Shown: piece by piece, positions 29,316 through 39,050 of the stretch | How positions within the stretch are numbered: position 1 is the first letter of the stretch | Layout: each line of letters opens with the position of its first letter | DNA from: a virus | Strand: one strand, 5' to 3' | IMG/VR virus record: IMGVR_UViG_3300045988_178038 | Span: 1-64,000 of that record | DNA length: 64,000 nt | Translations under genes and position numbers: made by a program | The notes under the pieces: generated by a model | Told to the model about the DNA's origin: nothing | Database searches by the model: none | The model's input: only the letters and a program-made list of their open reading frames with translations

Positions 29316-29684
29316 TTAGGAAAGCTTATAACCCTTCTGAGTTCCCTTCTTCTCCGGAATCTTCATGTCAACCTTCTCAAGCGTTCCTGCCTCGACGAAG
29401 GGCTTCAGAAGAGAGGGAATAGACTGTGGCTTGACCGTGTCAGCAAGACCAGCTGCCTCGATAAGCATAGTAGCGGTCTGCGGCTCATTCGTCATAACAT
29501 CCATAATGGCGTTACGAATAGGCTCCTTCTCTGCGTCCTTTGTGGCACGCTTTTCAGCCGCCTTGGCGCGGTTCTTCTCATTTGCGGCATTCATTACTTC
29601 CAGCTCGTGTGCGGCGAATTCAACCAGTTCAGCGGGCATGTCTTCAGCGGTAGCGATAGTGTTCAGAAATTCTCTCTTAGTCAT
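29316..29684 (-). CDS. hypothetical protein (122 aa), paralog of 33120..33512
   Basis: RBS GAAAGAAGGA; shared architecture MT(K/T)REF.N.I...E....E......L..M...N......K...K..E.....I...... and C-terminal KGY.L; GC-richer than neighbours. Confidence 0.6.
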   Translation of the reverse strand: MTKREFLNTIATAEDMPAELVEFAAHELEVMNAANEKNRAKAAEKRATKDAEKEPIRNAIMDVMTNEPQTATMLIEAAGLADTVKPQSIPSLLKPFVEAGTLEKVDMKIPEKKGTQKGYKLS

Positions 29685-29830
29685 ACTAGTATCCTTCTTT
29701 CAATTTTCTAATAGATGGGTTTATATCCCCGATTTTAGAAATAGAAGAAGATAATCGAACGTAAGTCGCAGCTTATGCGCGGTTCCACTATGTGGAGGTT
29801 TCGTTTCTTCTTCCCTCAGTTTCTATATAT

Positions 29831-29859
29831 ATTATACTATATTTTCGTTGATTTTTCAA
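29831..29859 (-). promoter_or_regulatory. promoter (minus strand) TTGAAA-17-TATAAT
   Basis: Read on the minus strand: TTGAAA (29859-29854), 17 bp, TATAAT (29836-29831); leader of about 140 nt to ATG 29684. Confidence 0.5.
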
Positions 29860-29869
29860 AATTGCGCCG

Positions 29870-29884
29870 GTCACGTTACGTGAC
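29870..29884. promoter_or_regulatory. 15-bp perfect palindrome GTCACGTTACGTGAC
   Basis: Sits 10 bp upstream of the -35 of the 29831-29859 promoter; a related GTCACGT half-site lies at 29899-29905. Confidence 0.5.
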
Positions 29885-30012
29885 ATTTTGTGCGTGCTGT
29901 CACGTAAAATGACGTCTTTCTTTGTCAAATTTTCCAGCTTAACAGTTGCAAAAAATGCGTTTTATTTTTTAAGAGGAAATTTCCATTGATACCTCTATAA
30001 ATTTCAATATCC

Positions 30013-30105
30013 CAGCTTATCGTCTGAAATATTGAAGACCCAGCTTATATGAAATTTGACACAAACGCAGCTTATTAGCAAGGCGGCCGCGCAGACGCAG
30101 CTTAT
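30013..30105 (+). repeat. four phased copies of CAGCTTAT (27-30 bp spacing)
   Basis: Copies at 30013, 30041, 30068, 30098; a fifth at 29769; lies in a 0.5 kb ORF-free region. Confidence 0.7.
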
Positions 30106-30272
30106 TTCAAAATTTGACTTTTCATTCAAATTCGATAATAGTTATTATATGAAGCGATAGAGGCCGCGCGATGTCATATAATATAGAAAAACTCATGTAA
30201 TATCGCGCGGCAAATATAATGTAATGTGGAATTGGGTATCATGTAAAGTTGAAAATTTGACAAAAATTTGAA

Positions 30273-30291
30273 TTAGACGTGAAACGTCTAA
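30273..30291. promoter_or_regulatory. dyad element TTAGACG-N5-CGTCTAA
   Basis: N5 = TGAAA; leftmost copy, next to the terminator at 30292. Confidence 0.6.
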
Positions 30292-30317
30292 TAAAAAAAG
30301 AGTGATTAAATCACTCT
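30292..30317 (-). terminator. intrinsic terminator (minus strand)
   Basis: AGAGTGAT/ATCACTCT stem (30299-30306/30310-30317), U-run encoded by the A-run 30292-30298. Confidence 0.65.
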
Positions 30318-30323
30318 TTATCA

Positions 30324-30422
30324 TTATCCGAATCGGATAAAATTAGAATCTCCGCTTGCTTTCCAAGGGTGGTTGATACCCATGCGTTTGCACCAAAAAT
30401 AACACTTAATTCTTCTAATCAT
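30324..30422 (-). CDS. hypothetical micro-ORF (32 aa) in the smallest cassette (could instead be an sRNA)
   Basis: GGAG 7 nt before ATG 30422; MIRRIKCYFWCKRMGINHPW...; own promoter and terminator. Confidence 0.3.
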   Translation of the reverse strand: MIRRIKCYFWCKRMGINHPWKASGDSNFIRFG

Positions 30423-30482
30423 TTTTAATCTCCGTTTCATCAGTATATTCTTCTGGCGTGCGGTCTTTCATTTGGTATTTGT

Positions 30483-30511
30483 ATTATATCATAGTTTTTT
30501 CTTTTTGTCAA
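30483..30511 (-). promoter_or_regulatory. promoter (minus strand) TTGACA-17-TATAAT
   Basis: TGTCAA at 30506-30511 and ATTATA at 30483-30488 on the plus strand; TGn extended -10. Confidence 0.65.
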
Positions 30512-30520
30512 CTCTTTTTA

Positions 30521-30539
30521 TTAGACGAAGAACGTCTAA
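30521..30539. promoter_or_regulatory. dyad element TTAGACG-N5-CGTCTAA
   Basis: N5 = AAGAA; 9 bp upstream of the -35. Confidence 0.6.
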
Positions 30540-30540
30540 A

Positions 30541-30573
30541 AAGAAAATAAAAAGAGGACGCTTACACGTCCTC
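30541..30573 (-). terminator. intrinsic terminator (minus strand)
   Basis: GAGGACG/CGTCCTC stem (30554-30560/30567-30573), U-run from the A-rich 30541-30553. Confidence 0.7.
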
Positions 30574-30592
30574 TACTAAAAGGTATTTGTTT

Positions 30593-30808
30593 TCAAAGAG
30601 GTGATTTTTCATCTTCTTCCCCGAATATGTCTCTTAGGATAGGAAGATAGTAGTATCTGATAAAAGATTGAACGGAAAAGAGATGATCAGAAAGCTCTTG
30701 AATTTCTGTTGCCTCATCTTCTTCTAGGTTTTCTTTTGCTCGGATGGAATCTGCTGAAAGCTCTTCGATTTCATCTACCATATTTCTAAGTTTTTGAGTA
30801 AGATTCAT
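30593..30808 (-). CDS. hypothetical acidic protein (71 aa)
   Basis: RBS GAAAGGAAG; own promoter and terminator. Confidence 0.6.
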   Translation of the reverse strand: MNLTQKLRNMVDEIEELSADSIRAKENLEEDEATEIQELSDHLFSVQSFIRYYYLPILRDIFGEEDEKSPL

Positions 30809-30857
30809 TTCTATTACTTCCTTTCACTTTGGTTGTTTCTTTCAACTTTGTAACTAG

Positions 30858-30886
30858 ATTATACCATAAAAATTTTGATTTGTCAA
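30858..30886 (-). promoter_or_regulatory. promoter (minus strand) TTGACA-17-TGgTATAAT
   Basis: TGTCAA 30881-30886, ATTATA 30858-30863; conserved leader CTAGTTACAAAGTTGA. Confidence 0.7.
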
Positions 30887-30895
30887 GAACTTTTT

Positions 30896-30914
30896 TTAGA
30901 CGGTTTACGTCTAA
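30896..30914. promoter_or_regulatory. dyad element TTAGACG-N5-CGTCTAA
   Basis: N5 = GTTTA; 9 bp upstream of the -35. Confidence 0.6.
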
Positions 30915-30922
30915 AAATGCGT

Positions 30923-30949
30923 AAAAGAAAAGGACACATAATGTGTCCT
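30923..30949 (-). terminator. intrinsic terminator (minus strand)
   Basis: AGGACACAT/ATGTGTCCT stem (30931-30939/30941-30949), U-run from 30923-30930. Confidence 0.7.
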
Positions 30950-30964
30950 TTTTCTCTTTACATA

Positions 30965-31711
30965 TCACCGAACGACGAATTTGTTCTTTGTCTTGTAATA
31001 TGTCGCGCGCGCTCCTTCGACAATAATTTTTTCACCCGGCAAGTCAATGGTGAGCTCGCGTGTCACTTTACGTTCAATAGAACGCTTTGCCTGATAGTCT
31101 CCGTTCAAATCGGCGCCACGGTCGAGACAAGCAAATAAAATTTCGGCTTCGATTTCGCTATCAGAAAGCGCGGTATGATCTTCAGTAAATGACGCATCAG
31201 AACGGATGTAACGCGTCAATGCTTCGGCAGTTGTGGAATAATGCCCGCTTTCAGTGAAAGCATTATTTTCTTCACACCATGCGCGGAATGTATTATCAAT
31301 CATGAAATGATGGACAAAACCGCGGATATCAGAAATAGGAACGGTTTCAAAAGGATTTATGACTTTGAACCAATCGCAGTTGAAATTGAAAACTTTTTCA
31401 TCGAAAGCGGAATTGTAAGCAAACGCGCGTTCAACTTCATAGTTGCGGAAATCACGGAGCATTTGCTGTGTCACATAACCGAACTTTTCCATCCGGATGG
31501 TTCGCGCTCTCAAAGCACCGACATAAATAGAACGCTTGTTTGCATAGTATGCAGTATTGAAAAGCGGGAGATTGTGCCAGATTTGCTCAATGACAAATTC
31601 ACGCTTTACAAGACAGGCACGAGATTCCGTATCAAGAATTAGATAGCCGACATTATAACAATACGGCTTTTCAAGGCTTGTCGTTTCCGTGTCGAATACA
31701 CAAATTTTCAT
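30965..31711 (-). CDS. DEDDh-type 3-prime to 5-prime exonuclease (DnaQ / RNase T-like)
   Basis: Exo I VFDTETTS, Exo II AYNSAFDEKVF, Exo III HTALSDSEIE. Confidence 0.75.
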   Translation of the reverse strand: MKICVFDTETTSLEKPYCYNVGYLILDTESRACLVKREFVIEQIWHNLPLFNTAYYANKRSIYVGALRARTIRMEKFGYVTQQMLRDFRNYEVERAFAYNSAFDEKVFNFNCDWFKVINPFETVPISDIRGFVHHFMIDNTFRAWCEENNAFTESGHYSTTAEALTRYIRSDASFTEDHTALSDSEIEAEILFACLDRGADLNGDYQAKRSIERKVTRELTIDLPGEKIIVEGARATYYKTKNKFVVR

Positions 31712-31771
31712 TTTTTCAAAGTCCTTTCATATTTCATTGATGGGTCTTTCGTCCTCTATCAACGTAACCAT

Positions 31772-31800
31772 ATTATAGCATAGAAAAGGGATTTTGTCAA
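31772..31800 (-). promoter_or_regulatory. promoter (minus strand) TTGACA-17-TGcTATAAT
   Basis: TGTCAA 31795-31800, ATTATA 31772-31777. Confidence 0.65.
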
Positions 31801-31842
31801 GAACTTTTTTTGTCGTGTAAGACGACGCGTGGTAGTCGGTTT

Positions 31843-31861
31843 TTAGACGATGGACGTCTAA
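31843..31861. promoter_or_regulatory. dyad element TTAGACG-N5-CGTCTAA
   Basis: N5 = ATGGA; 42 bp upstream of the -35; an extra small hairpin GTCGT-GTAAG-ACGAC lies at 31812-31826. Confidence 0.6.
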
Positions 31862-31897
31862 AAAAAAGAAATAAGAAAGAGGACGCATTACACGTCC
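31862..31897 (-). terminator. intrinsic terminator (minus strand) with the stop codon in the loop
   Basis: GGACG/CGTCC stem (31881-31885/31893-31897), loop holds TAA of ORF 31888; A-rich 31862-31880 gives the U-tail. Confidence 0.6.
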
Positions 31898-32109
31898 CTT
31901 TCGAGTTCAATGTAATGTTCAAGATTAGGAATTTCAATATCAAGAATTTCGTCGCAATCCGTTACTTTATTGAGTTTTTGATAAACTTCATTATACATAT
32001 TTTTCCACAATTTTTCATCGTAACAGTCATGAAGGGTGGTAGGCGCGAATTCGTCATCAATTTCAATTTCTTTTTCTACGCGTCCGATATAACTCACTTT
32101 TACTTTCAT
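31888..32109 (-). CDS. hypothetical protein (73 aa), paralog of 35407..35628
   Basis: ATG 32109; MKVKVSYIGRVEKEIEIDDE versus MKVKIIYTATVEKEIEVNDV. Confidence 0.6.
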   Translation of the reverse strand: MKVKVSYIGRVEKEIEIDDEFAPTTLHDCYDEKLWKNMYNEVYQKLNKVTDCDEILDIEIPNLEHYIELERDV

Positions 32110-32156
32110 TTCAAATCCTTCTTTCATTTGGTTATTTTCTTCAACCTTGTAACTAG

Positions 32157-32185
32157 ATTATAACATAAGAATTTCAATTTGTCAA
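32157..32185 (-). promoter_or_regulatory. promoter (minus strand) TTGACA-17-TGtTATAAT
   Basis: TGTCAA 32180-32185, ATTATA 32157-32162; conserved leader. Confidence 0.7.
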
Positions 32186-32194
32186 GAACTTTTT

Positions 32195-32213
32195 TTAGAC
32201 GTTCTTCGTCTAA
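32195..32213. promoter_or_regulatory. dyad element TTAGACG-N5-CGTCTAA
   Basis: N5 = TTCTT; 9 bp upstream of the -35. Confidence 0.6.
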
Positions 32214-32221
32214 AGACGAAA

Positions 32222-32250
32222 GGAAAAGAGGGTGACGCTTTACGCGCCAC
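32222..32250 (-). terminator. intrinsic terminator (minus strand) with the stop codon in the loop
   Basis: GTGACGC/GCGCCAC stem (6 of 7 bp), loop TTTAC holds TAA of ORF 32240. Confidence 0.55.
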
Positions 32251-32623
32251 TTTCCTCCTTTTCCTTTTCGCGTTCCTCGCGCTTGCGCTTTGCCTCGGCG
32301 CGGTTCTTTTCGTCCCATGCGATTTTTTCGGCTTTCTTCTTTGCGGTTTCGGCTTTTTTTGCGCGTTTCGCTTCGGTTTCCTGCGCGTAGTTCTGCGCTT
32401 CCTCGTAACCGTCATAAGGAATATAACATTTATTCTCTTTGTCACGCTCGCCCTTCGGGATACTAAAAGCGATATTCAAATATCCCTCATCTTCACCACG
32501 CACCCACGGAATAGAGATTGTTCCGCTTTTGACCTGTAACACATCTTCGCCCTTACTTTCGAACAGTTCGCGCACGGCAGACATAAATTCCTCGCGGATT
32601 TCAGTTTCAATTTTACTTGCCAT
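32240..32623 (-). CDS. hypothetical protein with a lysine/glutamate-rich C-terminal tail (127 aa)
   Basis: RBS AAAGGAAG; own promoter and terminator. Confidence 0.6.
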   Translation of the reverse strand: MASKIETEIREEFMSAVRELFESKGEDVLQVKSGTISIPWVRGEDEGYLNIAFSIPKGERDKENKCYIPYDGYEEAQNYAQETEAKRAKKAETAKKKAEKIAWDEKNRAEAKRKREEREKEKEESGA

Positions 32624-32658
32624 AGTTTTTGACTTCCTTTCTTTTATTTGGTAACTAG

Positions 32659-32687
32659 ATTATACCATAATTTTTTCAAAAAGTCAA
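32659..32687 (-). promoter_or_regulatory. promoter (minus strand) TTGACT-17-TGgTATAAT
   Basis: AGTCAA 32682-32687, ATTATA 32659-32664. Confidence 0.65.
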
Positions 32688-32738
32688 GTATTTGAAGAAA
32701 AAAATTTTTGGCGCGTTAGATTGCATTCTCGAAGGACT

Positions 32739-32757
32739 TTAGACGTATAACGTCTAA
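32739..32757. promoter_or_regulatory. dyad element TTAGACG-N5-CGTCTAA
   Basis: N5 = TATAA; 51 bp upstream of the -35. Confidence 0.6.
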
Positions 32758-32787
32758 AAATTTCTAAAGGGAAAGGCGAACCTAACC

Positions 32788-32985
32788 CTATTTTTCCTTT
32801 TCATCAATAAAAATTTCTTCATCGAGAAATTCCAAGCGATAAATTTTTTCCTGGACAAGATAAGTTTTACAATGCGGACATTTGATAAAACACGAGTAAT
32901 AATAATTATCATCTACTACTTCTTCAGTGGACTTGTAACAATTCTGAAATTCATCAAAGCGATTCTGACAATTTGGACAATACAT
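32788..32985 (-). CDS. hypothetical Zn-ribbon protein (65 aa)
   Basis: ATG 32985 behind GAAGGGAG; CPNC ... CPHC. Confidence 0.55.
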   Translation of the reverse strand: MYCPNCQNRFDEFQNCYKSTEEVVDDNYYYSCFIKCPHCKTYLVQEKIYRLEFLDEEIFIDEKEK

Positions 32986-33014
32986 TTTAAAAGCTCCCTT
33001 CACTTGATATCTTT

Positions 33015-33043
33015 ATTATAGCAGAAACTTATGAAAAAGTCAA
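33015..33043 (-). promoter_or_regulatory. promoter (minus strand) TTGACT-17-TGcTATAAT
   Basis: AGTCAA 33038-33043, ATTATA 33015-33020. Confidence 0.65.
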
Positions 33044-33053
33044 GAAAAATTTT

Positions 33054-33072
33054 TTAGACGTTCTTCGTCTAA
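33054..33072. promoter_or_regulatory. dyad element TTAGACG-N5-CGTCTAA
   Basis: N5 = TTCTT (identical to the copy at 32195); 10 bp upstream of the -35. Confidence 0.6.
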
Positions 33073-33082
33073 ATTAGTTCAT

Positions 33083-33111
33083 AAAAAAGGACGTCACTTT
33101 ATGTGACGTCC
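33083..33111 (-). terminator. intrinsic terminator (minus strand)
   Basis: GGACGTCAC/GTGACGTCC stem (33089-33097/33103-33111), U-run from 33083-33088. Confidence 0.75.
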
Positions 33112-33119
33112 CGTTACGT

Positions 33120-33512
33120 TTACTCTGCGTCGCTCGGCTCGGTGTCGCTCGGTTCTGCGTTCGCGAGGGAATAGCCCTTTGCTTTTCCCTTGCCCTTAAT
33201 CTTGACTTCAACAGAAGTCACTTCACCGGACTTCTCAAGAATCCGGAGCAGAGAAGAACACTTCTGAATGTTCTTCAGTTCCGGCTTTGCGTCAAAGAGG
33301 TCAGACGCGGTGATGTGATGGTCAGCAGCGGCGAGGACTTCGCGCACGATGGGCAGAAGTGCTTCGTTTTCCTTCTGTGCCTTTGTCGGCTTAGAGGAGC
33401 GTTCGGCGTTCTTCTTGTCCATTGCGGACAGGAGCGCGACAGCCTTTTCAGAGATTTCAGCGGAAACGTTTTCCATGGACAGGATAGCATTGTAAAATTC
33501 ACGAGTAGTCAT
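33120..33512 (-). CDS. hypothetical protein (130 aa), paralog of 29316..29684
   Basis: RBS GAAAGGAG; GC-richer than neighbours; see the paralog note. Confidence 0.6.
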   Translation of the reverse strand: MTTREFYNAILSMENVSAEISEKAVALLSAMDKKNAERSSKPTKAQKENEALLPIVREVLAAADHHITASDLFDAKPELKNIQKCSSLLRILEKSGEVTSVEVKIKGKGKAKGYSLANAEPSDTEPSDAE

Positions 33513-33592
33513 AATAGGCTCCTTTCATTTTAGCGACGGTCGCCACCCTATTTTTTTATATTCAAGAGGTTTCCTCTCTTGATTACGCCTTT

Positions 33593-33621
33593 ATTATACC
33601 ATAGATTTTTGAATTTGTCAA
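33593..33621 (-). promoter_or_regulatory. promoter (minus strand) TTGACA-17-TGgTATAAT (proximal of a tandem pair)
   Basis: TGTCAA 33616-33621, ATTATA 33593-33598. Confidence 0.65.
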
Positions 33622-33725
33622 GAGGGTTTTGGTCTTTTTTTTCATCGAAGCCGGCATTTGACTAAACTTGGGACTATATATACCATTAGGCTCGCCCACA
33701 GCGTCTCGCCCTCTTGACATTATGA

Positions 33726-33754
33726 ATTATATCATAGTCCGCGCGAAAAGTCAA
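33726..33754 (-). promoter_or_regulatory. promoter (minus strand) TTGACT-17-TGaTATAAT (distal of a tandem pair)
   Basis: AGTCAA 33749-33754, ATTATA 33726-33731; about 100 nt upstream of the proximal promoter. Confidence 0.55.
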
Positions 33755-33805
33755 GAAGAAATTTTAGAAATTTTGTCATATAACGTGACTTCGCGCGAGA
33801 AAGAT

Positions 33806-33824
33806 TTAGACGAGGAACGTCTAA
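33806..33824. promoter_or_regulatory. dyad element TTAGACG-N5-CGTCTAA
   Basis: N5 = AGGAA; 51 bp upstream of the -35 at 33749-33754. Confidence 0.6.
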
Positions 33825-33830
33825 TTCAAG

Positions 33831-33861
33831 AGAGAAAGAAAAGAGGCGCTTTATGCGCCTC
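33831..33861 (-). terminator. intrinsic terminator (minus strand)
   Basis: GAGGCGC/GCGCCTC stem (33843-33849/33855-33861), U-run from 33831-33842. Confidence 0.7.
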
Positions 33862-33884
33862 AAAAAGATATATTACATTTTATT

Positions 33885-34157
33885 TTACTTTTCTTTGTTG
33901 AGAATGTCAAAACATTTGTTTTCATCGACTCCAATGAAAGTTACTTTACAAGAAGTAGAATAGAATTTCCCACTTCTAAAGCTTGCTTCCCATTTTGCTA
34001 CATATTTGAGACCATTGTTATCGTTTCGCCATTCTCCCATTACCGTGCTTGTGATATATTTTCTTGCTACTTTGTCTTTGACGTGGTTTTTCGCCATTAC
34101 CATAGCTTGCTGAAGGTTGGTAAAATAATATCCTCTTACGCGATAAAACGTAGTCAT
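33885..34157 (-). CDS. hypothetical protein (90 aa)
   Basis: ATG 34157 behind AAAGGAGAA; track ORF shortened. Confidence 0.55.
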   Translation of the reverse strand: MTTFYRVRGYYFTNLQQAMVMAKNHVKDKVARKYITSTVMGEWRNDNNGLKYVAKWEASFRSGKFYSTSCKVTFIGVDENKCFDILNKEK

Positions 34158-34232
34158 TAGAAATTCTCCTTTTTGTGATAAGTCACAACCTATTTTTATT
34201 TCGTTGAGTTCCTGTCTCAACTTTGTAACTAG

Positions 34233-34261
34233 ATTATAACATAAAAGTTTTGATTTGTCAA
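34233..34261 (-). promoter_or_regulatory. promoter (minus strand) TTGACA-17-TGtTATAAT
   Basis: TGTCAA 34256-34261, ATTATA 34233-34238; conserved leader. Confidence 0.7.
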
Positions 34262-34280
34262 TAATTTTTCGAAAAATTTT

Positions 34281-34299
34281 TTAGACGGTCTACGTCTAA
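34281..34299. promoter_or_regulatory. dyad element TTAGACG-N5-CGTCTAA
   Basis: N5 = GTCTA; 19 bp upstream of the -35. Confidence 0.6.
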
Positions 34300-34300
34300 T

Positions 34301-34331
34301 AGGAAAGGGAATACGCTTATCGCGTATTCCC
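34301..34331 (-). terminator. terminator-like hairpin (minus strand) with the stop codon in the loop
   Basis: 10-bp stem GGGAATACGC/GCGTATTCCC (34307-34316/34322-34331); loop TTATC holds TAA of ORF 34317; weak U-tail. Confidence 0.5.
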
Positions 34332-34670
34332 GCAAATAATTCTTTTCATTATCTGTTCAATAATACTGTGGCTGTTCGGGATACAAAAAGGCAGTTTTAT
34401 ATTCAGTCTTTGTGCCTCATTGAGAAGGTCTGCGCGAATGTCATCATATCCCGCAATGCTACTCAAAAGACACGTTCTTGCAATTTCTGCGTCGTGGTCT
34501 GCTTTTTTCCTGTCTGGTGTATTTTCTGGATAGAGAATGGCAGAGAAGATTGTTGCATAGGTGTCAAAAACTCGCATTTCAAGTGTAAAAGTGCTTTCAT
34601 GTAAACGTTCAATTCGATTGTTGATCACGGGATTGGTAGTCGGCTGAATTTTCTTTTTCTTTTTGAACAT
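34317..34670 (-). CDS. hypothetical protein (117 aa)
   Basis: RBS GAAAGGAAG; own promoter and terminator. Confidence 0.6.
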   Translation of the reverse strand: MFKKKKKIQPTTNPVINNRIERLHESTFTLEMRVFDTYATIFSAILYPENTPDRKKADHDAEIARTCLLSSIAGYDDIRADLLNEAQRLNIKLPFCIPNSHSIIEQIMKRIICGNTR

Positions 34671-34704
34671 TTTAGAAGCTTCCTTTCTTTTGTTTGGTAA
34701 TTGT

Positions 34705-34733
34705 ATTATATCATAAGAATTTCAATTCGTCAA
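34705..34733 (-). promoter_or_regulatory. promoter (minus strand) TTGACG-17-TGaTATAAT
   Basis: CGTCAA 34728-34733, ATTATA 34705-34710. Confidence 0.6.
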
Positions 34734-34742
34734 TAGTTTTCT

Positions 34743-34761
34743 TTAGACGGTTCACGTCTAA
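34743..34761. promoter_or_regulatory. dyad element TTAGACG-N5-CGTCTAA
   Basis: N5 = GTTCA; 9 bp upstream of the -35. Confidence 0.6.
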
Positions 34762-34764
34762 GAC

Positions 34765-34800
34765 AAAAAAACAGAAAAAGGTGACGCTTTATGCGTCACC
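34765..34800 (-). terminator. intrinsic terminator (minus strand) with the stop codon in the loop
   Basis: GGTGACGC/GCGTCACC stem (34780-34787/34793-34800), loop TTTAT holds TAA of ORF 34789, U-run from 34765-34779. Confidence 0.75.
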
Positions 34801-35247
34801 AATCGAATGAAGAAAATCAAAAATCTCTGTCGCGTCATATGCCATCATTCCTGCGTGCGTCCATTCTTCACGATTTGGCTTTTCATCATCAAAAAGAAAA
34901 CCGCCGCGCAATATGCCAACTTCGCTTTTTGGTGTGCCGTAATGAACAATACAAATTTCATCGAATCGAACGCTTTTCAAATGGCGCGAAAGCCATTCCA
35001 TTTTTGCGCGGCGAACTTCTTCAAGAAAATTTTCGTCACGGTCTTTACTTCCCCATGATACAATGCGGATTTTCCATCCCTTGCGCTGAACCGCGTTCAA
35101 ACGTCGCGCGAGTCTTGAAAGATTGAGAAGTGCGCGTGCGTCTCTGTATGGGCTTGCATCATGCGCGCGAATTTTCGGAAGCCAATTTTTAATGCCGTAA
35201 AAGTCAACGATTGTTCCATCCATATCTAAACTAATAATTTTTTCCAT
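34789..35247 (-). CDS. HAD-superfamily 5-prime(3-prime)-deoxyribonucleotidase-like phosphatase
   Basis: N-terminal ISLDMDGTIVDF (DxDG nucleophile motif), FLFDD near the C-terminus; size typical of NT5C-like phage enzymes. Confidence 0.55.
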   Translation of the reverse strand: MEKIISLDMDGTIVDFYGIKNWLPKIRAHDASPYRDARALLNLSRLARRLNAVQRKGWKIRIVSWGSKDRDENFLEEVRRAKMEWLSRHLKSVRFDEICIVHYGTPKSEVGILRGGFLFDDEKPNREEWTHAGMMAYDATEIFDFLHSIGDA

Positions 35248-35276
35248 TTTAAAAGCTCCTTTCTTTTTGTATCTAA

Positions 35277-35305
35277 ATTATATCATAGTTTTTCTAATTT
35301 GTCAA
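35277..35305 (-). promoter_or_regulatory. promoter (minus strand) TTGACA-17-TGaTATAAT
   Basis: TGTCAA 35300-35305, ATTATA 35277-35282. Confidence 0.65.
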
Positions 35306-35355
35306 GAAGAATTTTAGAAAATTTTGACATATAAGATGAAATCTGTGTGAAATAT

Positions 35356-35374
35356 TTAGACGATGGACGTCTAA
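35356..35374. promoter_or_regulatory. dyad element TTAGACG-N5-CGTCTAA
   Basis: N5 = ATGGA (identical to the copy at 31843); 50 bp upstream of the -35. Confidence 0.6.
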
Positions 35375-35398
35375 CAAAAAAAGGGGAAATTCCCCCCC
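35375..35398 (-). terminator. intrinsic terminator (minus strand)
   Basis: GGGGA/TCCCC stem (35383-35387/35391-35395), U-run from 35375-35382. Confidence 0.6.
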
Positions 35399-35406
35399 CT
35401 CTTGTA

Positions 35407-35628
35407 TTACCATATTGCAATACAAATATATGAACCTTTTTCCTTGTCAAAGGCAAAAATACGGTCCATGTCTTTAAAACCTTCTTGTTTTTCTGCAATG
35501 TCGGCCATTTTGTCACAAAAAAGGTCGGAAATTTCTTCTGGGCAATCTTCCCGTTTTACAATTTCATAAACATCATTGACTTCAATTTCCTTTTCAACTG
35601 TAGCGGTATAAATAATTTTTACTTTCAA
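35407..35628 (-). CDS. hypothetical protein (73 aa), paralog of 31888..32109
   Basis: RBS GAAAGGAAA; shared N-terminus MKVK..Y...VEKEIE. Confidence 0.6.
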   Translation of the reverse strand: MKVKIIYTATVEKEIEVNDVYEIVKREDCPEEISDLFCDKMADIAEKQEGFKDMDRIFAFDKEKGSYICIAIW

Positions 35629-35676
35629 TTTATATTTTCCTTTCTTTTCGTTGAGTTATTTCAACTTTGTAATTAG

Positions 35677-35705
35677 ATTATATCATAAGAATTTCAATTT
35701 GTCAA
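35677..35705 (-). promoter_or_regulatory. promoter (minus strand) TTGACA-17-TGaTATAAT
   Basis: TGTCAA 35700-35705, ATTATA 35677-35682; conserved leader. Confidence 0.7.
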
Positions 35706-35714
35706 GAACTTTTT

Positions 35715-35733
35715 TTAGACGAACCACGTCTAA
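35715..35733. promoter_or_regulatory. dyad element TTAGACG-N5-CGTCTAA
   Basis: N5 = AACCA; 9 bp upstream of the -35. Confidence 0.6.
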
Positions 35734-35742
35734 TTTTCCACT

Positions 35743-35899
35743 AGAAGAAACGCGCGGTGATGGTTGCCCGCGCATTTCAATGTAAACAAAACAAAAACAC
35801 AAAAGAAAGGAGGCACTATTTTCTCCAACCATCAGAAGGAAACAGTATCAACAAAGAAGATTTTTCCTAACCCACCCACAACCATCTTCTTTTGATTAC
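35743..35899 (-). ncRNA. candidate sRNA of about 155 nt (promoter-to-terminator unit without a convincing ORF)
   Basis: Starts after the TATAAT at 35906-35911; hairpins AAGAAGAT/ATCTTCTT and GGAG/CTCC; ends at GCGCGG/CCGCGC stem (35752-35757/35768-35773) plus U-run; only RBS-less ORFs of 17-50 aa. Confidence 0.35.
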
Positions 35900-35905
35900 G
35901 TAATT

Positions 35906-35934
35906 ATTATAGCACGTTTTATGCGGTTTGTCAA
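35906..35934 (-). promoter_or_regulatory. promoter (minus strand) TTGACA-17-TGcTATAAT
   Basis: TGTCAA 35929-35934, ATTATA 35906-35911. Confidence 0.65.
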
Positions 35935-36003
35935 GAGGAATTTCAAAATTTCTGGAAATTATTTTTGTAAAATTTTCTGAAATTCTTTCCTCTAACTATC
36001 TAT

Positions 36004-36031
36004 ATTATACTATATTTTCTGAAAAAGTCAA
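36004..36031 (-). promoter_or_regulatory. promoter (minus strand) TTGACT-16-TATAAT (tandem, upstream of 35906-35934)
   Basis: AGTCAA 36026-36031, ATTATA 36004-36009. Confidence 0.55.
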
Positions 36032-36041
36032 GAAAAAACTT

Positions 36042-36060
36042 TTAGACGAAAAACGTCTAA
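36042..36060. promoter_or_regulatory. dyad element TTAGACG-N5-CGTCTAA
   Basis: N5 = AAAAA; 10 bp upstream of the -35. Confidence 0.6.
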
Positions 36061-36070
36061 ATCGATCTAG

Positions 36071-36100
36071 GAAAAAAGAGTTGACGCATTACGCGTCAAC
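36071..36100 (-). terminator. intrinsic terminator (minus strand) with the stop codon in the loop
   Basis: GTTGACGC/GCGTCAAC stem (36080-36087/36093-36100), loop ATTAC holds TAA of ORF 36089, U-run from 36072-36077. Confidence 0.75.
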
Positions 36101-36484
36101 TCCGTATTCTTTCATTTCTTTTTTCAATTCTTCAATTTTATCTGCGGGGAGATACCAACGATAATGTTCTTCATCATAAAGATAAAGCCCCGTCGTTTTA
36201 CGATTATGGCCACCATCGCTACTCCATGGGCTAATAATTTCACAAGAATTACACAATTCATCAATAGAGGGGATTGCGCTTTCATCTTCTATATAAATTC
36301 CCCAAATTTCACAGGAAGAAGAAACTATATCGTCAAAAGATAAAATTTTTTTATCACGGCCGAAAAAAATTACGTTGTTAAAATGTTTACTAATCTTTTC
36401 CAAGCGTTCGTGTTGCCAGCACTCATTTTCATCGTCAAAAACCTGCCCGCAGAGGTCGCAAACATATTTTGTGATAGTAGTCAT
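36089..36484 (-). CDS. hypothetical protein with an N-terminal C2H2-like zinc finger (131 aa)
   Basis: YVCDLCGQVFDDENECWQHE; RBS GAAAGGGGAA. Confidence 0.6.
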   Translation of the reverse strand: MTTITKYVCDLCGQVFDDENECWQHERLEKISKHFNNVIFFGRDKKILSFDDIVSSSCEIWGIYIEDESAIPSIDELCNSCEIISPWSSDGGHNRKTTGLYLYDEEHYRWYLPADKIEELKKEMKEYGVDA

Positions 36485-36513
36485 TTTTATTCCCCTTTCA
36501 TTTTGGTATTTGT

Positions 36514-36542
36514 ATTATATCATAGATTTTTTCTTTTGTCAA
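36514..36542 (-). promoter_or_regulatory. promoter (minus strand) TTGACA-17-TGaTATAAT
   Basis: TGTCAA 36537-36542, ATTATA 36514-36519. Confidence 0.65.
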
Positions 36543-36552
36543 GAATTTTTAT

Positions 36553-36571
36553 TTAGACGATATACGTCTAA
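36553..36571. promoter_or_regulatory. dyad element TTAGACG-N5-CGTCTAA
   Basis: N5 = ATATA; 10 bp upstream of the -35. Confidence 0.6.
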
Positions 36572-36580
36572 AATTTTCTG

Positions 36581-36606
36581 GAAGAGAAATGACGCGTTAT
36601 GCATCA
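36581..36606 (-). terminator. intrinsic terminator (minus strand) with the stop codon in the loop
   Basis: 6-bp stem 36590-36595/36601-36606 (one G-U on the transcript), loop holds TAA of ORF 36597, U-rich tail. Confidence 0.55.
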
Positions 36607-36827
36607 TCTCTCAAGATTTCTTCGTTCAAAATATAACAATTACCATCGTCTTGAATTTCGATATTTCCCAAAATATTTTCCAATTCATCAACGGCTCTTT
36701 GTAATTCGTTGTTCTGTGTAAATTGCAACGCATTTCTCAACCAGCACCGCGCGTTATTGATATCAGCAAATTCTTTGTCTGAAAAAGAAATCTGCTGTCT
36801 TTTGATAGTAATATTTTCAATCTTCAT
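36597..36827 (-). CDS. hypothetical protein (76 aa)
   Basis: RBS GAAGGAG; last gene of a three-ORF mini-operon. Confidence 0.6.
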   Translation of the reverse strand: MKIENITIKRQQISFSDKEFADINNARCWLRNALQFTQNNELQRAVDELENILGNIEIQDDGNCYILNEEILRDDA

Positions 36828-36891
36828 TTCAAAAACACTCCTTCAAAAATTTTGAAAATATTCCAATTTGCGAGAAAAGGCCGCGCGAAAA

Positions 36892-36978
36892 TCACGTTGA
36901 AATAAGAAAAATAAGCCAAAGAATCACAAGGATTCCAATTACACCAAAGAAATTTCCAAAAAACTTTTTAGTCTTCAT
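36892..36978 (-). CDS. hypothetical single-pass membrane peptide (28 aa)
   Basis: MKTKKFFGNFFGVIGILVILWLIFLIST; the ATG overlaps the end of the upstream micro-ORF. Confidence 0.3.
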   Translation of the reverse strand: MKTKKFFGNFFGVIGILVILWLIFLIST

Positions 36979-37105
36979 AGACTTGCGCATAACAAATCCA
37001 CTCTTCAATACAAAGGTCCGCGCGGTGCATTGCGTCCACAAAAGTTAGCCCAAAAATCATTGAGCATTCAAAGGTTTCTAAGTTTTGAATAAAGTAAGTA
37101 TACAT
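36968..37105 (-). CDS. hypothetical micro-ORF (45 aa)
   Basis: RBS AAAGGAGAA 5 nt before ATG 37105; first ORF after the promoter at 37129-37157. Confidence 0.35.
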   Translation of the reverse strand: MYTYFIQNLETFECSMIFGLTFVDAMHRADLCIEEWICYAQVYED

Positions 37106-37128
37106 TGTTTTCTCCTTTCTTTGATTAT

Positions 37129-37157
37129 ATTATATCAGAATTTTTTGAAAAAGTCAA
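37129..37157 (-). promoter_or_regulatory. promoter (minus strand) TTGACT-17-TGaTATAAT
   Basis: AGTCAA 37152-37157, ATTATA 37129-37134. Confidence 0.6.
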
Positions 37158-37168
37158 GAAATTTTTTT

Positions 37169-37187
37169 TTAGACGAATTACGTCTAA
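37169..37187. promoter_or_regulatory. dyad element TTAGACG-N5-CGTCTAA
   Basis: N5 = AATTA; 11 bp upstream of the -35. Confidence 0.6.
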
Positions 37188-37216
37188 GAAATTAGAGCTG
37201 GCTCAAGTCCAGCTCT
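37186..37216 (-). terminator. terminator-like hairpin (minus strand)
   Basis: AGAGCTGG/CCAGCTCT stem (37194-37201/37209-37216) overlapping the stop of the 57-aa ORF; short U-rich tail. Confidence 0.5.
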
Positions 37217-37376
37217 CTCCTTCTCGATTTGGCAAAATTGTCAGCTTATAAACGCAGCTCCCAGCTTGTAAGTAGTTTTTGATGAGGGAAGGCAACTCCT
37301 CTAGAGTAGTAATGTTGTCTTCACTGACGCCATGTTGGCCCATGATGCCATTGTCATGTTCTACTAAAACTGTCAT
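37203..37376 (-). CDS. hypothetical protein (57 aa); below the ORF-track cut-off
   Basis: RBS GGAAGGAG 8 nt before ATG 37376; MTVLVEHDNGIMGQHGVSEDNITTLEEL...; own promoter and hairpin. Confidence 0.5.
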   Translation of the reverse strand: MTVLVEHDNGIMGQHGVSEDNITTLEELPSLIKNYLQAGSCVYKLTILPNREGESWT

Positions 37377-37453
37377 GATATATTACTCCTTCCATGTTAT
37401 ACGACATTCCAATAAACTTCGGATAATATTCATTTTCCGCCGTCCTTGCCCAT

Positions 37454-37481
37454 ATTATATCACATAATAGCAAAAAATCAA
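37454..37481 (-). promoter_or_regulatory. promoter (minus strand) TTGATT-16-TGaTATAAT
   Basis: AATCAA 37476-37481, ATTATA 37454-37459. Confidence 0.5.
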
Positions 37482-37513
37482 GTCCTCTAACATGACAGAA
37501 TGGCGTCTAATAG

Positions 37514-37532
37514 TTAGACGAACTCCGTCTAA
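37514..37532. promoter_or_regulatory. dyad element TTAGACG-N5-CGTCTAA
   Basis: N5 = AACTC; part of a cluster with half-sites CGTCTAA 37504-37510 and TTAGACG 37598-37604. Confidence 0.6.
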
Positions 37533-37559
37533 AAATGAATAAAAGTCACATAAGATGAC

Positions 37560-37578
37560 TTAGACGAACCACGTCTAA
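37560..37578. promoter_or_regulatory. dyad element TTAGACG-N5-CGTCTAA
   Basis: N5 = AACCA (identical to the copy at 35715). Confidence 0.6.
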
Positions 37579-37640
37579 AAGTCATACTACATTGCTTTTA
37601 GACGTGACCGGGTGATGTCATGTAAAGTGACATCAATTGA

Positions 37641-37670
37641 TAAAAAGAAAAGACGCTTTACGCGTCTTTT
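37641..37670 (-). terminator. intrinsic terminator (minus strand) with the stop codon in the loop
   Basis: AAAAGACGC/GCGTCTTTT stem (37648-37656/37662-37670), loop TTTAC holds TAA of ORF 37658, U-run from 37641-37650. Confidence 0.7.
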
Positions 37671-37912
37671 CCCACATAAACGATGATTTCATGGTCTCTT
37701 GTCAACTCAAGTCCCTTGACATGCCATTTTTCAATCTCATCGGGAAAGAGGACTTCTCCCGTTACAGAGTTGACATAGCGCCCGCACCCGTCATTTTCAT
37801 AATTAGAATTGTCATAGACCCATTCAGCCCCCGTTTCATCGTCATAGATGAATTCGGGGTAAGCATACGCGACATAGTCGCAGAAGTCAGCTAAGGTAAT
37901 AGTTTTTTTCAT
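37658..37912 (-). CDS. hypothetical protein (84 aa)
   Basis: ATG 37912 behind GAAAGGAA; last gene of a three-gene operon. Confidence 0.55.
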   Translation of the reverse strand: MKKTITLADFCDYVAYAYPEFIYDDETGAEWVYDNSNYENDGCGRYVNSVTGEVLFPDEIEKWHVKGLELTRDHEIIVYVGKDA

Positions 37913-37966
37913 TTTATATTCCTTTCTGCCCGTCATGCCGATAGCTCAGCGTCATGTCATTTTAGG

Positions 37967-38203
37967 TTACGCACTCCATCTTAGGTTGCGCCACCCGCCA
38001 ATGTCAGTCCCATTTTCATCTATGGTTACGATGTCGCCTGATGCGACTTTTTCTTGTACGACAAAGCCGAGACGCGCGCCGTTCTCCATAGCTTTGTCAA
38101 GATAAGTGACTACTGTATCCGCGTCGCCTAACGTTGCGAAATACTGGTCTGTCACTTCTTCTGTCATGTCATAGCGCACAATCAGTCTAAAATTCATTTC
38201 CAT
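37967..38203 (-). CDS. hypothetical protein (78 aa)
   Basis: RBS GGAAGGAG; follows 38240..38740 without a terminator. Confidence 0.6.
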   Translation of the reverse strand: MEMNFRLIVRYDMTEEVTDQYFATLGDADTVVTYLDKAMENGARLGFVVQEKVASGDIVTIDENGTDIGGWRNLRWSA

Positions 38204-38239
38204 GTTACATAGCTCCTTCCATTTTACGGGACTGGGCGC

Positions 38240-38740
38240 TTAGAGCGCCCATCCATTGTCCAGCCATTCGGAAAACGGCATTGCCTGCGCGCAGGCAACA
38301 GCGCGTTCAAGTATTTCAAGTAACTTGAAATACTTCTTGCCGTGCGGAGCGTTCAGTTTACCATTCCAAAATGTTTGGATGGTTATTTTACGCTCCCCAT
38401 TGCTACTAGTCTTTTCGCGGAGAAGTCCAGCCTCTGACAGGACTTCAATGAAGGTGTCGCGTGTCAGGACATAGGCCCTCTGCTCTGTTAACTCTTTGTC
38501 GGGATTGATGACCGGACAATAGATCACATAACGTGACCCCTTGACCAGCTTGTCACCTAACCGGCCAAGCTCACCAGCCCCCGATTTGATTTCATAACAC
38601 TGCGCGGCGCGGCGCATATCCGTGCGACCGGGCGCCGCCACTTTAGATTTCATATGCAGCGTCTCTTTACAAAGACGTTCAAACGCCTTCCCACAGCGCC
38701 CGCAGTCGCTTTCAGTGTAACCGTACTTTTCAATATTCAT
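38240..38740 (-). CDS. hypothetical protein, possible PD-(D/E)xK nuclease fold (166 aa)
   Basis: N-terminal CGRCGKAF...C cluster; TDMRRAAQCYEIKSG fits D-x(n)-E-x-K; GC-richer than neighbours. Confidence 0.5.
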   Translation of the reverse strand: MNIEKYGYTESDCGRCGKAFERLCKETLHMKSKVAAPGRTDMRRAAQCYEIKSGAGELGRLGDKLVKGSRYVIYCPVINPDKELTEQRAYVLTRDTFIEVLSEAGLLREKTSSNGERKITIQTFWNGKLNAPHGKKYFKLLEILERAVACAQAMPFSEWLDNGWAL

Positions 38741-38804
38741 CTTTTATTCTCACTTTCTCGTCGTCTGTCCGGCGTGTCGTTGTTTTGTTTTTGTTTACGC
38801 TCTT

Positions 38805-38833
38805 ATTATAGCAATAACGTCTAAGAATGTCAA
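38805..38833 (-). promoter_or_regulatory. promoter (minus strand) TTGACA-17-TGcTATAAT with a dyad half-site in the spacer
   Basis: TGTCAA 38828-38833, ATTATA 38805-38810; CGTCTAA at 38818-38824 lies between -35 and -10. Confidence 0.65.
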
Positions 38834-39050
38834 CAACTTTTTTCACCAGTTTGTCGCATAATATTTCGTCAATTCTAACAAACTAAAGTCTTATTATATG
38901 ACAGGCTCTTGTGCAGAACAGCGAACTGCAGAACGACGTATAATGGGGTGGGTTTTGTCGTTTGACATGACAAAATATGGGCCGGGGTACATTTAGTAAT
39001 TTTACTTTTTCTATGACACATTACATTTCGGGGCCTCGCAACTTTTCTCA

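Follow-up and report, generated by a model that had tools for sequence, protein, structure and literature searches.

What might explain why a phage would give almost every small gene of one early region its own promoter and its own terminator, and repeat the same invariant palindrome between them? The question is raised by about 18 small early genes arrayed on the minus strand at 29.3-38.8 kb of IMGVR_UViG_3300045988_178038, as seen in the window analyzed here (positions 1 to 64,000 of that record, to which all coordinates refer). The array is best read as the early-gene region of an abundant, uncultured human-gut siphovirus of about 117 kb, the host of which is probably a Firmicute. We propose that its repeated intergenic modules act as recombination joints of the promoter early stem-loop (PeSL) kind known from T4-type phages, combined with a lineage-specific protein-and-site system that would control the early promoters, and we put the probability of this reading at about one half.

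All plausible genes between 29316 and 38740 lie on the minus strand, and the recurring unit runs from a GC-rich hairpin terminator through the dyad, an A-tract and a sigma-A promoter to a leader and a Shine-Dalgarno sequence. The minus strand carries 11 perfect sigma-A promoters (12/12 positions of TTGACA-17-TGnTATAAT) and eight more at 11/12, the scan giving 56 promoter-like sites compared with 28 in shuffled sequence, and an A-tract forms an AT-rich stretch upstream of most array promoters. The scan gave twelve minus-strand terminators, and inspection of the sequence adds three more, with hairpins at about 37641-37670, 35747-35778 and 30923-30958. Each unit, with its own promoter and terminator, is predicted to give an independent transcript. 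A hairpin of -8 to -24 kcal/mol stands 0-34 nucleotides (nt) upstream of every dyad; a stable hairpin 0-20 nt upstream is common to all lineages, and in several of them it has a poor U-tract. The counts of the original prediction, which had been made from the letters alone (about 19 sigma-A promoters, 15 terminators and 17 dyads), were reproduced, as were the uniform strand and the heterogeneous GC content, which ranges from 0.30 to 0.52 among the open reading frames (ORFs). Its four "almost verbatim" modules turned out to be less alike: three of these 70-100 base pair (bp) elements are 82-90% identical, the fourth is about 65% identical with a 10-nt insertion, and the rest are 50-77% identical. 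The conserved leader that it assigned to the module is limited to the three or four most similar copies, and a general 5' leader hairpin was dropped because one is seen in only about 6 of 16 leaders. The ORFs that flank modules of 60-90% identity are mutually unrelated, as had been claimed, apart from two paralogous pairs (35407-35628 with 31888-32109, and 33120-33512 with 29316-29684). Likewise, one gene per unit is the rule for most of the array and fails for the first promoter, which is shared by three genes, for the promoter at 37129-37157 (P37157), shared by two or three, and for those at 35906-35934 and 33726-33754, which head units with no convincing ORF. Almost all array ORFs are without a family match in Pfam or PHROG, and the host-takeover or anti-defense roles first suggested for them are unsupported; an Rfam scan found no known RNA family inside the array. 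A second motif, TTAYATGAYA, is over-represented in the window, with 52 matches at no more than one mismatch compared with 18.8 expected; it clusters at both array edges and in modules with long (41-51 nt) dyad-to-promoter spacers (29216-30246, 31811, 33774, 35325, 37488-37625 and 38894-39018) and may be the site of a second regulator or belong to another class of promoter.

The palindrome is the most constant part of the module. TTAGACG-N5-CGTCTAA, 19 bases long, occurs in 17 copies between 30273 and 37578, compared with 0.22 expected from shuffles, and all 17 are exact in a scan that allowed up to two mismatches. Pooling of 12 arrays gave 181 exact dyads, two with one mismatch and none with two, and among the 181 there is not a single compensatory or G-U change in the arms; variation is seen in the center of five bases, in the flanks and in the promoters. 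The same exact dyad is found in the array of L027 (one of the homologous loci, referred to by number), in which the neighboring protein is only 37% identical to that of the window, it fills the distant contigs L004 (22 copies) and L010, and it is present on more than 100 IMG/VR stretches. The heptamer TTAGACG is nearly restricted to the array, which holds 37 of its 38 copies, with one outside compared with about 5.6 expected (P = 0.024). Fifteen of the 17 window dyads lie upstream of a promoter at phased distances, and among 514 non-identical sites the distance from dyad to -35 clusters at 9, 19, 31-32, 41 and 51 nt. Once the first mode is set aside, the vector strength R for a period of 10.5 bp is 0.43, and its phase agrees with the 9-nt spacing; 5000 uniform controls reached at most 0.24, with the qualification that related sites are not independent. 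The dyad was rejected as an intrinsic terminator because no U-tract follows it on either strand, and we infer that it acts as a sequence-specific DNA site. A literature search on the motif, on conserved palindromes at phage early promoters and on nuclease-fold repressors found no description of this system.

Comparison with related phages shows that cassettes are exchanged at the modules. Eight close relatives, recruited through the neighboring 442-residue gene (94-96% identity in that protein), each have 13-17 dyads of the same sequence and share blocks with the window at 88-93% nucleotide identity, in a differing gene order. Cassettes of families 2, 14, 15 and 18 are present in some and absent from others, a 73-residue ORF of the window is replaced in relatives by one of 121 residues, and the slot between the 127-residue and 248-residue genes holds alternative ORFs, which differ again in six further genomes recruited through an identical 127-residue protein. 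One cassette has also moved: the 71-residue ORF at 30593-30808 lies past the exonuclease gene in the window and between families 15 and 17 in L019, L020 and L023. The ends of collinear homology with six close relatives merge into 26 breakpoint clusters, and 23 of them lie inside modules or no more than 10 nt from the edge of an ORF (18 strictly non-coding and five within that distance of a start or stop codon; binomial p = 7e-7, the non-coding fraction of the array being 37%, or 41% with 10-nt margins). The three internal breakpoints represent one deletion, in the sole operon without an internal module. Breakpoints are found in the terminator, dyad, -35, -10, leader and start codon, and this spread over the whole module fits homologous recombination along it, not site-specific recombination; integron-like recombination at the dyad was rejected, since breakpoints are not concentrated there.

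The idea of a portable, PeSL-like module between exchangeable genes is thus borne out by the breakpoints, and the comparison of relatives, which the original prediction had named as its check, revealed absent and replaced cassettes, one that had moved, and no strict synteny. Exchangeability does not extend to four families that are kept in every lineage examined: the HAD nucleotidase, the exonuclease, family 17 and family 19. The naming of the first two, as a HAD nucleotidase and a DEDDh exonuclease, agrees with Pfam and PHROG matches that support it weakly. What had been called an extra operator-like dyad now appears as an invariant, promoter-phased and lineage-typed putative site that is tied to one phage gene.

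Other lineages retain the order of hairpin, palindrome and promoter and fill it with other invariant palindromes, as seen in loci gathered through the conserved HAD gene and a family 17 homologue. In L145 the element is GTAGTCT-N4/5-AGACTAC, with 12 exact copies and no near-misses, and in L195 it is TAACCTA-N3-TAGGTTA, with 16-17 copies; in the TAACCTA lineage the spacings to the -35 are 8 (six times), 18-19 (six times) and 29 (once), with R = 0.98. The 8-bp perfect palindrome GCCCGGGC is found in at least four copies in 27 of 84 loci, and there are several further types. L145 and L027, with their different palindromes, are equally close to the window, and L187, which shares blocks with L188 and L182 at 73-89% nucleotide identity, has 14 TTAGACG dyads, gene 1 and no GCCCGGGC, compared with 8-9 GCCCGGGC sites and zero or one TTAGACG dyad in L188, which has eight of the former, and L182. 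Such a concerted switch between close relatives argues for a cognate factor that changes together with its sites, and against a host factor. The lone TTAGACG-N5-CGTCTAA dyad of L182, at 6389 within the GCCCGGGC-type array, may be a relic or a hybrid module left by exchange between site types. L161 and L214 have two palindromes per array, either CGAACATATGTTCG or GCCCGGGC past the terminators and TTGTTAA-N4-TTAACAA by the promoters, the latter at times as tandem pairs. In phAss-1 and Enterococcus phage EF1 multi-promoter arrays are present and invariant dyads were not found; the early array of EF1 (L147, MF001358) has eight strong extended -10 promoters and three to five copies of TTGTGAA-N4-TTCACAA (3417, 3758, 9717), which we take to be matches to the Rex repressor box.

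Which phage protein might read the TTAGACG site? The family profile of gene 1, the first gene of the array (38240-38740), detects a homologue in 17 of 19 TTAGACG loci and in none of 65 others (Fisher 7e-16). The two misses, L176 and L004, may be uninformative, as the gene-1 position perhaps lies outside both loci: the HAD match of L176 is about 600 nt from the locus end, and the first dyad of L004 is 245 nt from the locus start. In a tree of the HAD gene the TTAGACG loci are polyphyletic, falling in at least six separate places, and gene 1 tracks them each time. Not only does gene 1 accompany the dyad, its own promoter also carries a single half-site, TTAGACG, in the spacer right after the -35 in the window, L155, L027 and L228, or CGTCTAA, 8-9 nt upstream of the -35, in the L187 group, and the sequence around these half-sites has otherwise diverged. 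Since a lone half-site cannot form a hairpin, the motif would be read on DNA, and its presence in the promoter of gene 1 itself resembles an autoregulatory arrangement. In 20 homologues, down to 34% identity, D41, E50 and K52 are invariant (D-x8-E-x-K), which fits the conserved D ... (D/E)xK motif of PD-(D/E)xK restriction-endonuclease-like proteins. The AlphaFold2 (AF2) model of gene 1, with a predicted local distance difference test score (pLDDT) of 90.6, matches in BFVD a gut-phage protein named "Restriction endonuclease" (E 1.2e-10, template modeling score 0.73). In L188 the gene-1 slot is occupied by a different protein of 155 residues with the same motif order, GxxFE ... D ... QxK, the family of which is found in 16 of 27 GCCCGGGC loci, in 12 of 57 others, among them loci with other palindromes, and in no TTAGACG locus.

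Other candidates were set aside. Foldseek relates the AF2 model of family 17 (pLDDT 82) to the winged helices of Fur, PadR and MarR (E about 2e-3), but the putative recognition helix of the family, TQKASALLRQL, is identical across TTAGACG, GTAGTCT and TAACCTA phages and, as a further strike, varies widely among TTAGACG phages. Family 19, for which the homologue search returned near-identical proteins only, was rejected on the same ground of no co-variation with dyad type. The 442-residue protein (39197-40525) gave no useful alignment, its homologues in L027, L145 and L026 being broken by stop codons. Apart from the winged-helix family 17, which does not co-vary, no ParB or helix-turn-helix regulator was found among the array ORFs.

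How would such a system work? Because they are reiterated, the modules serve as portable homology, and, as the comparison of relatives shows, recombination between one module and another deletes, inserts, replaces or moves whole cassettes complete with promoter and terminator. The palindrome would be the recognition site of a phage-encoded dimeric protein, most likely the product of gene 1, itself expressed from the one promoter with a mere half-site. Seated directly upstream of the -35, always on the same face of the helix and at the contact zone of the RNA polymerase alpha subunit, the bound protein would regulate all early promoters jointly; both the binding by gene 1 and its effect on the promoters are deduced from these sequence patterns. 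Since the promoters already have consensus strength and the site overlaps the upstream contact zone of the polymerase, we favor shut-off or insulation over activation. Other phage lineages would hold other site-and-protein pairs in the same slot, in the way that lambdoid phages have different immunity types.

Several observations sit uneasily with this joint recombination-and-regulation proposal. The constant neighbor of the dyad is a hairpin, in several lineages one without a U-tract, which hints at a role in termination or processing. The GTAGTCT dyad lies 41-121 nt from its promoter with no clear phasing, and its half-sites are 4 or 5 nt apart, a poor fit to a rigid dimer. The gene 1 model has no significant match among solved structures (best PDB E = 0.1), gene 1 has no Pfam or PHROG match, and its family profile has none among PDB sequences, so that the assignment to a nuclease fold comes from the motif and one database name. 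Invariant residues of a catalytic type would be more expected of an active enzyme than of a pure regulator. The co-occurrence of gene 1 and dyad could derive in part from shared ancestry or from linkage within the same array, the HAD tree being itself a cassette tree, and the pairing of GCCCGGGC with the D..QxK protein is much looser (16/27 compared with 12/57).

The main rival retains the same cis-trans pair and has the gene 1 product, as an active site-specific enzyme, cleave or nick the palindromes, with breaks that would stimulate recombination between modules. Cassette shuffling, recombination-dependent replication or the exclusion of co-infecting relatives with the same site would be the outcome, a homing- or integron-style mobilization of cassettes in which any effect on transcription is secondary. 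The D-x8-E-x-K residues and the BFVD match speak for an enzyme, the all-or-none conservation of the site (181 exact compared with 2) is a restriction-type trait, GCCCGGGC as a perfect palindrome is paired with another D..QxK protein, the sites stand exactly at the points of cassette exchange, and the heptamer is rare outside the array. Nevertheless, breakpoints are spread and not focused on the dyad, 17 double-strand cuts per genome would be self-destructive unless the sites were protected or cutting tightly controlled, and both the helical phasing and the half-sites in the gene 1 promoter are traits of a regulator, which leaves the nuclease an unlikely, if serious, competitor. Also on the improbable side, and to about the same degree, is a compound of regulator and nuclease: a self-targeting site-and-enzyme system, run by a large and abundant clade of gut phages, that would act at the palindrome of each cassette junction and both gate early transcription and mobilize cassettes through breaks or nicks. 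Its interchangeable types (TTAGACG, GCCCGGGC, GTAGTCT, TAACCTA and others) would then define compatibility groups among competing phages, and the whole would amount to a phage version of the integron that relies on a nuclease and on promoters of host type.

An RNA hairpin, a host factor and a passive repeat are each less likely than the nuclease. If the palindrome folded as RNA or single-stranded DNA, it could form, together with the upstream hairpin, a two-hairpin 3'-end signal that terminates, processes or stabilizes read-through transcripts, possibly through a hairpin-specific nuclease. A stable hairpin does stand just upstream of the dyad in every lineage, most such hairpins lack a U-tract in L027, L004 and L145, and the GTAGTCT dyad, with its center of 4 or 5 nt and its long distance from the promoter, also speaks for this reading. 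Against it, 181 copies contain no G-U or compensatory variant, two independent dyad types keep a phased distance to the -35, the single half-sites conserved at the gene 1 promoter cannot fold, and most transcripts should exclude the dyad because it lies between a terminator and the next transcription start. We regard this reading as quite improbable, and place on the same low level the binding of a global regulator or nucleoid protein of the host, with palindrome types that mirror hosts. The failure of the winged-helix family 17 to co-vary with dyad type would be in keeping with a host protein, whereas the different palindromes of the close relatives L187 and L188, and a palindrome type that follows a phage gene, are not; we also know of no Firmicute regulator with a matching motif. 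Least probable is a plain PeSL-like repeat with no trans factor, in which the dyad is simply the best-conserved piece of a module subject to gene conversion. The modules within a genome are indeed alike and recombining, but the arms stay invariant where loop, flanks, promoters and proteins diverge (the proteins to 37% identity), type switches of whole arrays coincide with a gene, and a half-site is conserved at the gene 1 promoter.

The array is reminiscent of the PeSL motifs of T4-type phages, which consist of a stem-loop terminator, an AT-rich stretch, a consensus early promoter for the host sigma factor and a Shine-Dalgarno sequence, and which bound the indels and replacements between relatives, with crossovers at various points of the motif (Arbiol et al. 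2010, PMC2839356; Comeau et al. 2014, PMC4122927). The same composite motif is reiterated here around small genes without known relatives, and indels and replacements are again bounded by the module with crossovers at varied points; judged by its sequence, the array is functionally of the PeSL type, having the promoter, stem-loop and motif-bounded indels that make up the three testable defining features. Unlike the T4-type examples, it belongs to a large siphovirus of Gram-positive gut bacteria, without sequence homology to them and not a T4-like myovirus, it forms one contiguous array on a single strand in place of scattered hyperplastic regions, four of its cassettes are conserved core genes, and it has the additional palindrome, invariant, phased, lineage-typed and tied to a phage gene.

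In Bacillus phage SPO1 the host-takeover module reportedly lies in the terminal redundancy and comprises 24 small genes, equipped with numerous early sigma-A promoters and with terminators. The array resembles it in its dense small early genes, in the strong sigma-A promoter and terminator of each gene or small group, and possibly in a position beside a genome end, as several related contigs start or stop at 13-mer repeats next to it. No homology to SPO1 genes was detected in PHROGs, and to our knowledge no invariant palindrome has been described for SPO1. Global operator regulons, such as that of the C1 operators of phage P1, provide another comparison. In plasmid RK2, KorB with its OB sites and KorA with its OA sites act at near-identical palindromes (TTTAGCGGCTAAA and GTTTAGCTAAAC) at many promoters (PMC11790492), and the SPbeta repressor is integrase-like, an enzyme-type fold recruited as a repressor (bioRxiv 10.1101/2025.11.27.690993). 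As in the RK2 and P1 regulons, one palindromic site (17 dyads) stands at many promoters at varied distances. Unlike in those regulons, the candidate protein is nuclease-like, with no ParB or helix-turn-helix regulator in the array, and the sites, which belong to tandemly arrayed cassettes of a phage that is probably lytic, switch type between close relatives. Integrons share the exchangeable small-gene cassettes, each bounded by an inverted-repeat element like attC; however, every cassette here has its own promoter, unlike the promoterless cassettes of integrons, attC lacks the invariance of the dyad, breakpoints fall at many points of the module, and no integrase was matched in Pfam or PHROGs among the array ORFs.

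If correct, the proposal would extend the PeSL principle, in which regulatory repeats double as joints for gene swapping, to common uncultured phages of Gram-positive gut bacteria. It would add a new layer, an invariant lineage-specific palindrome at every joint that is apparently paired with a small nuclease-like early protein, and a nuclease-like protein with its own sites and switchable specificity types could be new in kind. It would give a handle on the joint shut-off or insulation of an early gene block, a possible explanation of why cassette exchange stays within compatible phage types, and a set of compact parts (strong promoter, terminator, protein site) in several orthogonal specificities. 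The variable cassettes are, moreover, a defined place to seek new host-takeover or anti-defense genes.

In the direction of transcription, with every feature on the minus strand, the array begins with the first-operon promoter at 38805-38833 (TTGACA-17-TGcTATAAT, 12/12), which holds the half-site at 38818-38824 within its spacer. It is followed by gene 1 (166 residues), the restriction-endonuclease-like candidate for dyad recognition, gene 2 (37967-38203, 78 residues), which L014, L016 and L022 lack through the deletion without module borders, and gene 3 (37658-37936, 92 residues), which ends the operon at the hairpin of about 37641-37670. The next module, 37454-37604, is a dyad cluster, with half-sites at 37598-37604 and 37504-37510, dyads at 37560-37578 and 37514-37532 and a weaker promoter at 37454-37481 (TTGATT-16-TATAAT); this tandem cluster is retained in all close relatives, with spacings of 32 and 78. 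An ORF of 57 residues (37203-37376, terminator 37194-37216) leads to the module 37129-37187, in which the dyad at 37169-37187 is 11 nt from P37157 (TTGACT-17-TGaTATAAT). That promoter heads the unit 36597-37105 of two or three small ORFs, namely 45 residues at 36968-37105, a short hydrophobic one at about 36892-36992 and 76 residues at 36597-36827, closed by a weak hairpin at 36584-36612. In the module 36514-36571 the dyad (36553-36571) is 10 nt from a 12/12 promoter (36514-36542), and the 131-residue ORF at 36089-36484 that follows is zinc-ribbon-like, with an N-terminal Cys pair and a terminator at 36077-36103. The region 35742-36060 has a dyad (36042-36060) and two promoters, 36004-36031 and 35906-35934 (12/12). 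From the second of these to the hairpin at 35747-35778 an ORF-less RNA of about 158 nt is predicted (35742-35899; fold z-score -3.0), which is a candidate phage small RNA.

Further along, the module 35677-35733, one of those with the conserved leader, has its dyad (35715-35733) 9 nt from a 12/12 promoter (35677-35705) and precedes a 73-residue ORF with a TTG start (35407-35628, terminator 35379-35403), the paralogue of 31888-32109. In the module 35277-35374 the dyad (35356-35374) is separated by 50 nt, including a TTATATGTCA element, from a 12/12 promoter (35277-35305), which serves the HAD-type 5'-nucleotidase-like core gene of all lineages (34789-35247, 152 residues, terminator 34780-34800; Pfam NT5C 3.3e-6, PHROG 2643). 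Next are the module 34705-34761, with its dyad (34743-34761) 9 nt from the 11/12 promoter 34705-34733 (TTGACG), and a variable cassette of 117 residues (34317-34670, terminator 34307-34331) that is missing in L014, L015 and L022. The dyad at 34281-34299 in the module 34233-34299 is 19 nt from the 12/12 promoter 34233-34261, the conserved leader of which has a hairpin, and serves a second variable cassette, of 90 residues (33885-34157, terminator 33843-33861). Another region with two promoters, 33583-33824, has a dyad (33806-33824) 51 nt, with a TTATATGACA element, from the promoter 33726-33754, past which lies a short ORF-poor unit without a Shine-Dalgarno sequence (a 45-residue ORF or an RNA); the 12/12 promoter 33593-33621 then precedes the core family 17 protein (33120-33512, 130 residues, terminator 33088-33112), winged-helix-like in its C-terminal half. 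The module 33015-33072 (dyad 33054-33072, 10 nt, promoter 33015-33043) leads to a 65-residue zinc-ribbon ORF (32788-32985, weak hairpin 32768-32789), replaced in L014 by an unrelated ORF of 117 residues.

The module 32659-32757 (dyad 32739-32757, 51 nt, promoter 32659-32687) serves the core family 19 protein (32240-32623, 127 residues, terminator 32232-32250), which has a charged C-terminal helix and homologues on hundreds of metagenome contigs. Beyond it, the dyad at 32195-32213 in the module 32157-32213 is 9 nt from a 12/12 promoter with the conserved leader (32157-32185), and the 73-residue paralogue at 31888-32109 (terminator 31880-31898) occupies the hypervariable slot that holds other ORFs in relatives. 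The module 31772-31861 (dyad 31843-31861, 42 nt, 12/12 promoter 31772-31800) precedes the core exonuclease-like gene (30965-31711, 248 residues, terminator about 30923-30958), which has a DTET motif, matches PHROG 20187 (8.6e-24) and PHROG 192, and has homologues in Enterococcus phage EF1 and phAss-1. Two more modules have 12/12 promoters 9 nt from the dyad: 30858-30914 (dyad 30896-30914, promoter 30858-30886, conserved leader), ahead of the 71-residue ORF (30593-30808, terminator 30553-30574), and 30483-30539 (dyad 30521-30539, promoter 30483-30511), ahead of a 38-residue ORF (30324-30440, terminator 30297-30319). The last dyad, 30273-30291, has no adjacent promoter and is followed by about 410 nt of non-coding sequence. 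The last unit, 29276-29859, is without a dyad; its promoter (29831-29859, TTGAAA-17-TATAAT) and 140-nt leader precede the 122-residue family 17 paralogue (29316-29684) and a terminator at 29276-29303.

Which phage carries this array? Besides a tRNA cluster and a ROOL RNA, the window has genes for a head protease, tail fibers, an endolysin and a replication initiator. Its 2170-residue tape measure is of siphovirus type, and so is its portal, which is related to portals of siphoviruses of Bacillus and Enterococcus; to judge from the endolysin and the type of promoter, the host is probably Gram-positive. A DNA-level search of deposited phages found no match to the window, and the nearest named genomes, with portal identities of 24-30%, belong to phAss-1, a gut phage, and to large siphoviruses of Bacillus and Enterococcus. 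Hundreds of metagenome contigs, each of about 115-120 kb, encode proteins of this phage; they come from studies that appear, by their sample names, to be of human gut, and one of the proteins has the database name "MAG TPA ... Caudoviricetes sp.". Divergent from the array is the 442-residue gene (39197-40525, plus strand), with a PHROG "sigma factor" match (E 2e-12) and a C-terminal zinc ribbon; the in-frame stops of its homologues may mean that a stop codon is recoded, as it is in a related phage, the "code 15" phAss-1. Between the two lies a perfect tandem repeat of the 13-mer ACTGAAATTTAAA (4.9 copies, 39050-39113), and four related IMG/VR contigs start or stop within about 150 nt of this repeat or the neighboring gene, which could mark a genome terminus, a packaging site or a mere assembly break.

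At the other end of the array, the ORF-free stretch of about 410 nt past the last dyad contains five copies of ATAAGCTG (29769-30105, minus strand), four of them at 27-30 nt intervals and iteron-like in look, and the replication-initiator-like gene (27091-27738) is close by. A full-length ROOL RNA (2308-2902, plus strand; Rfam RF03087, 282 bits, E 1.4e-63) comes directly after a group of tRNA genes, five or six in number (170-2140). A gene run at 41780-44021, directly upstream of the portal gene, is split by two group I introns (42297-42532 and 43243-43437, plus strand; Rfam RF00028, 106 and 65 bits), and the interrupted gene may encode the large terminase. Two free-standing homing-type endonuclease genes, one for a NUMOD1 domain protein and one for an HNH endonuclease, lie amid the structural genes (51924-52865 and 55960-57036, plus strand). 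A 623-residue ORF with a tyrosine-phosphatase domain (9669-11540, plus strand; Pfam Y_phosphatase3, 9e-26) is located in a patch of high GC content, 0.53 compared with about 0.39.

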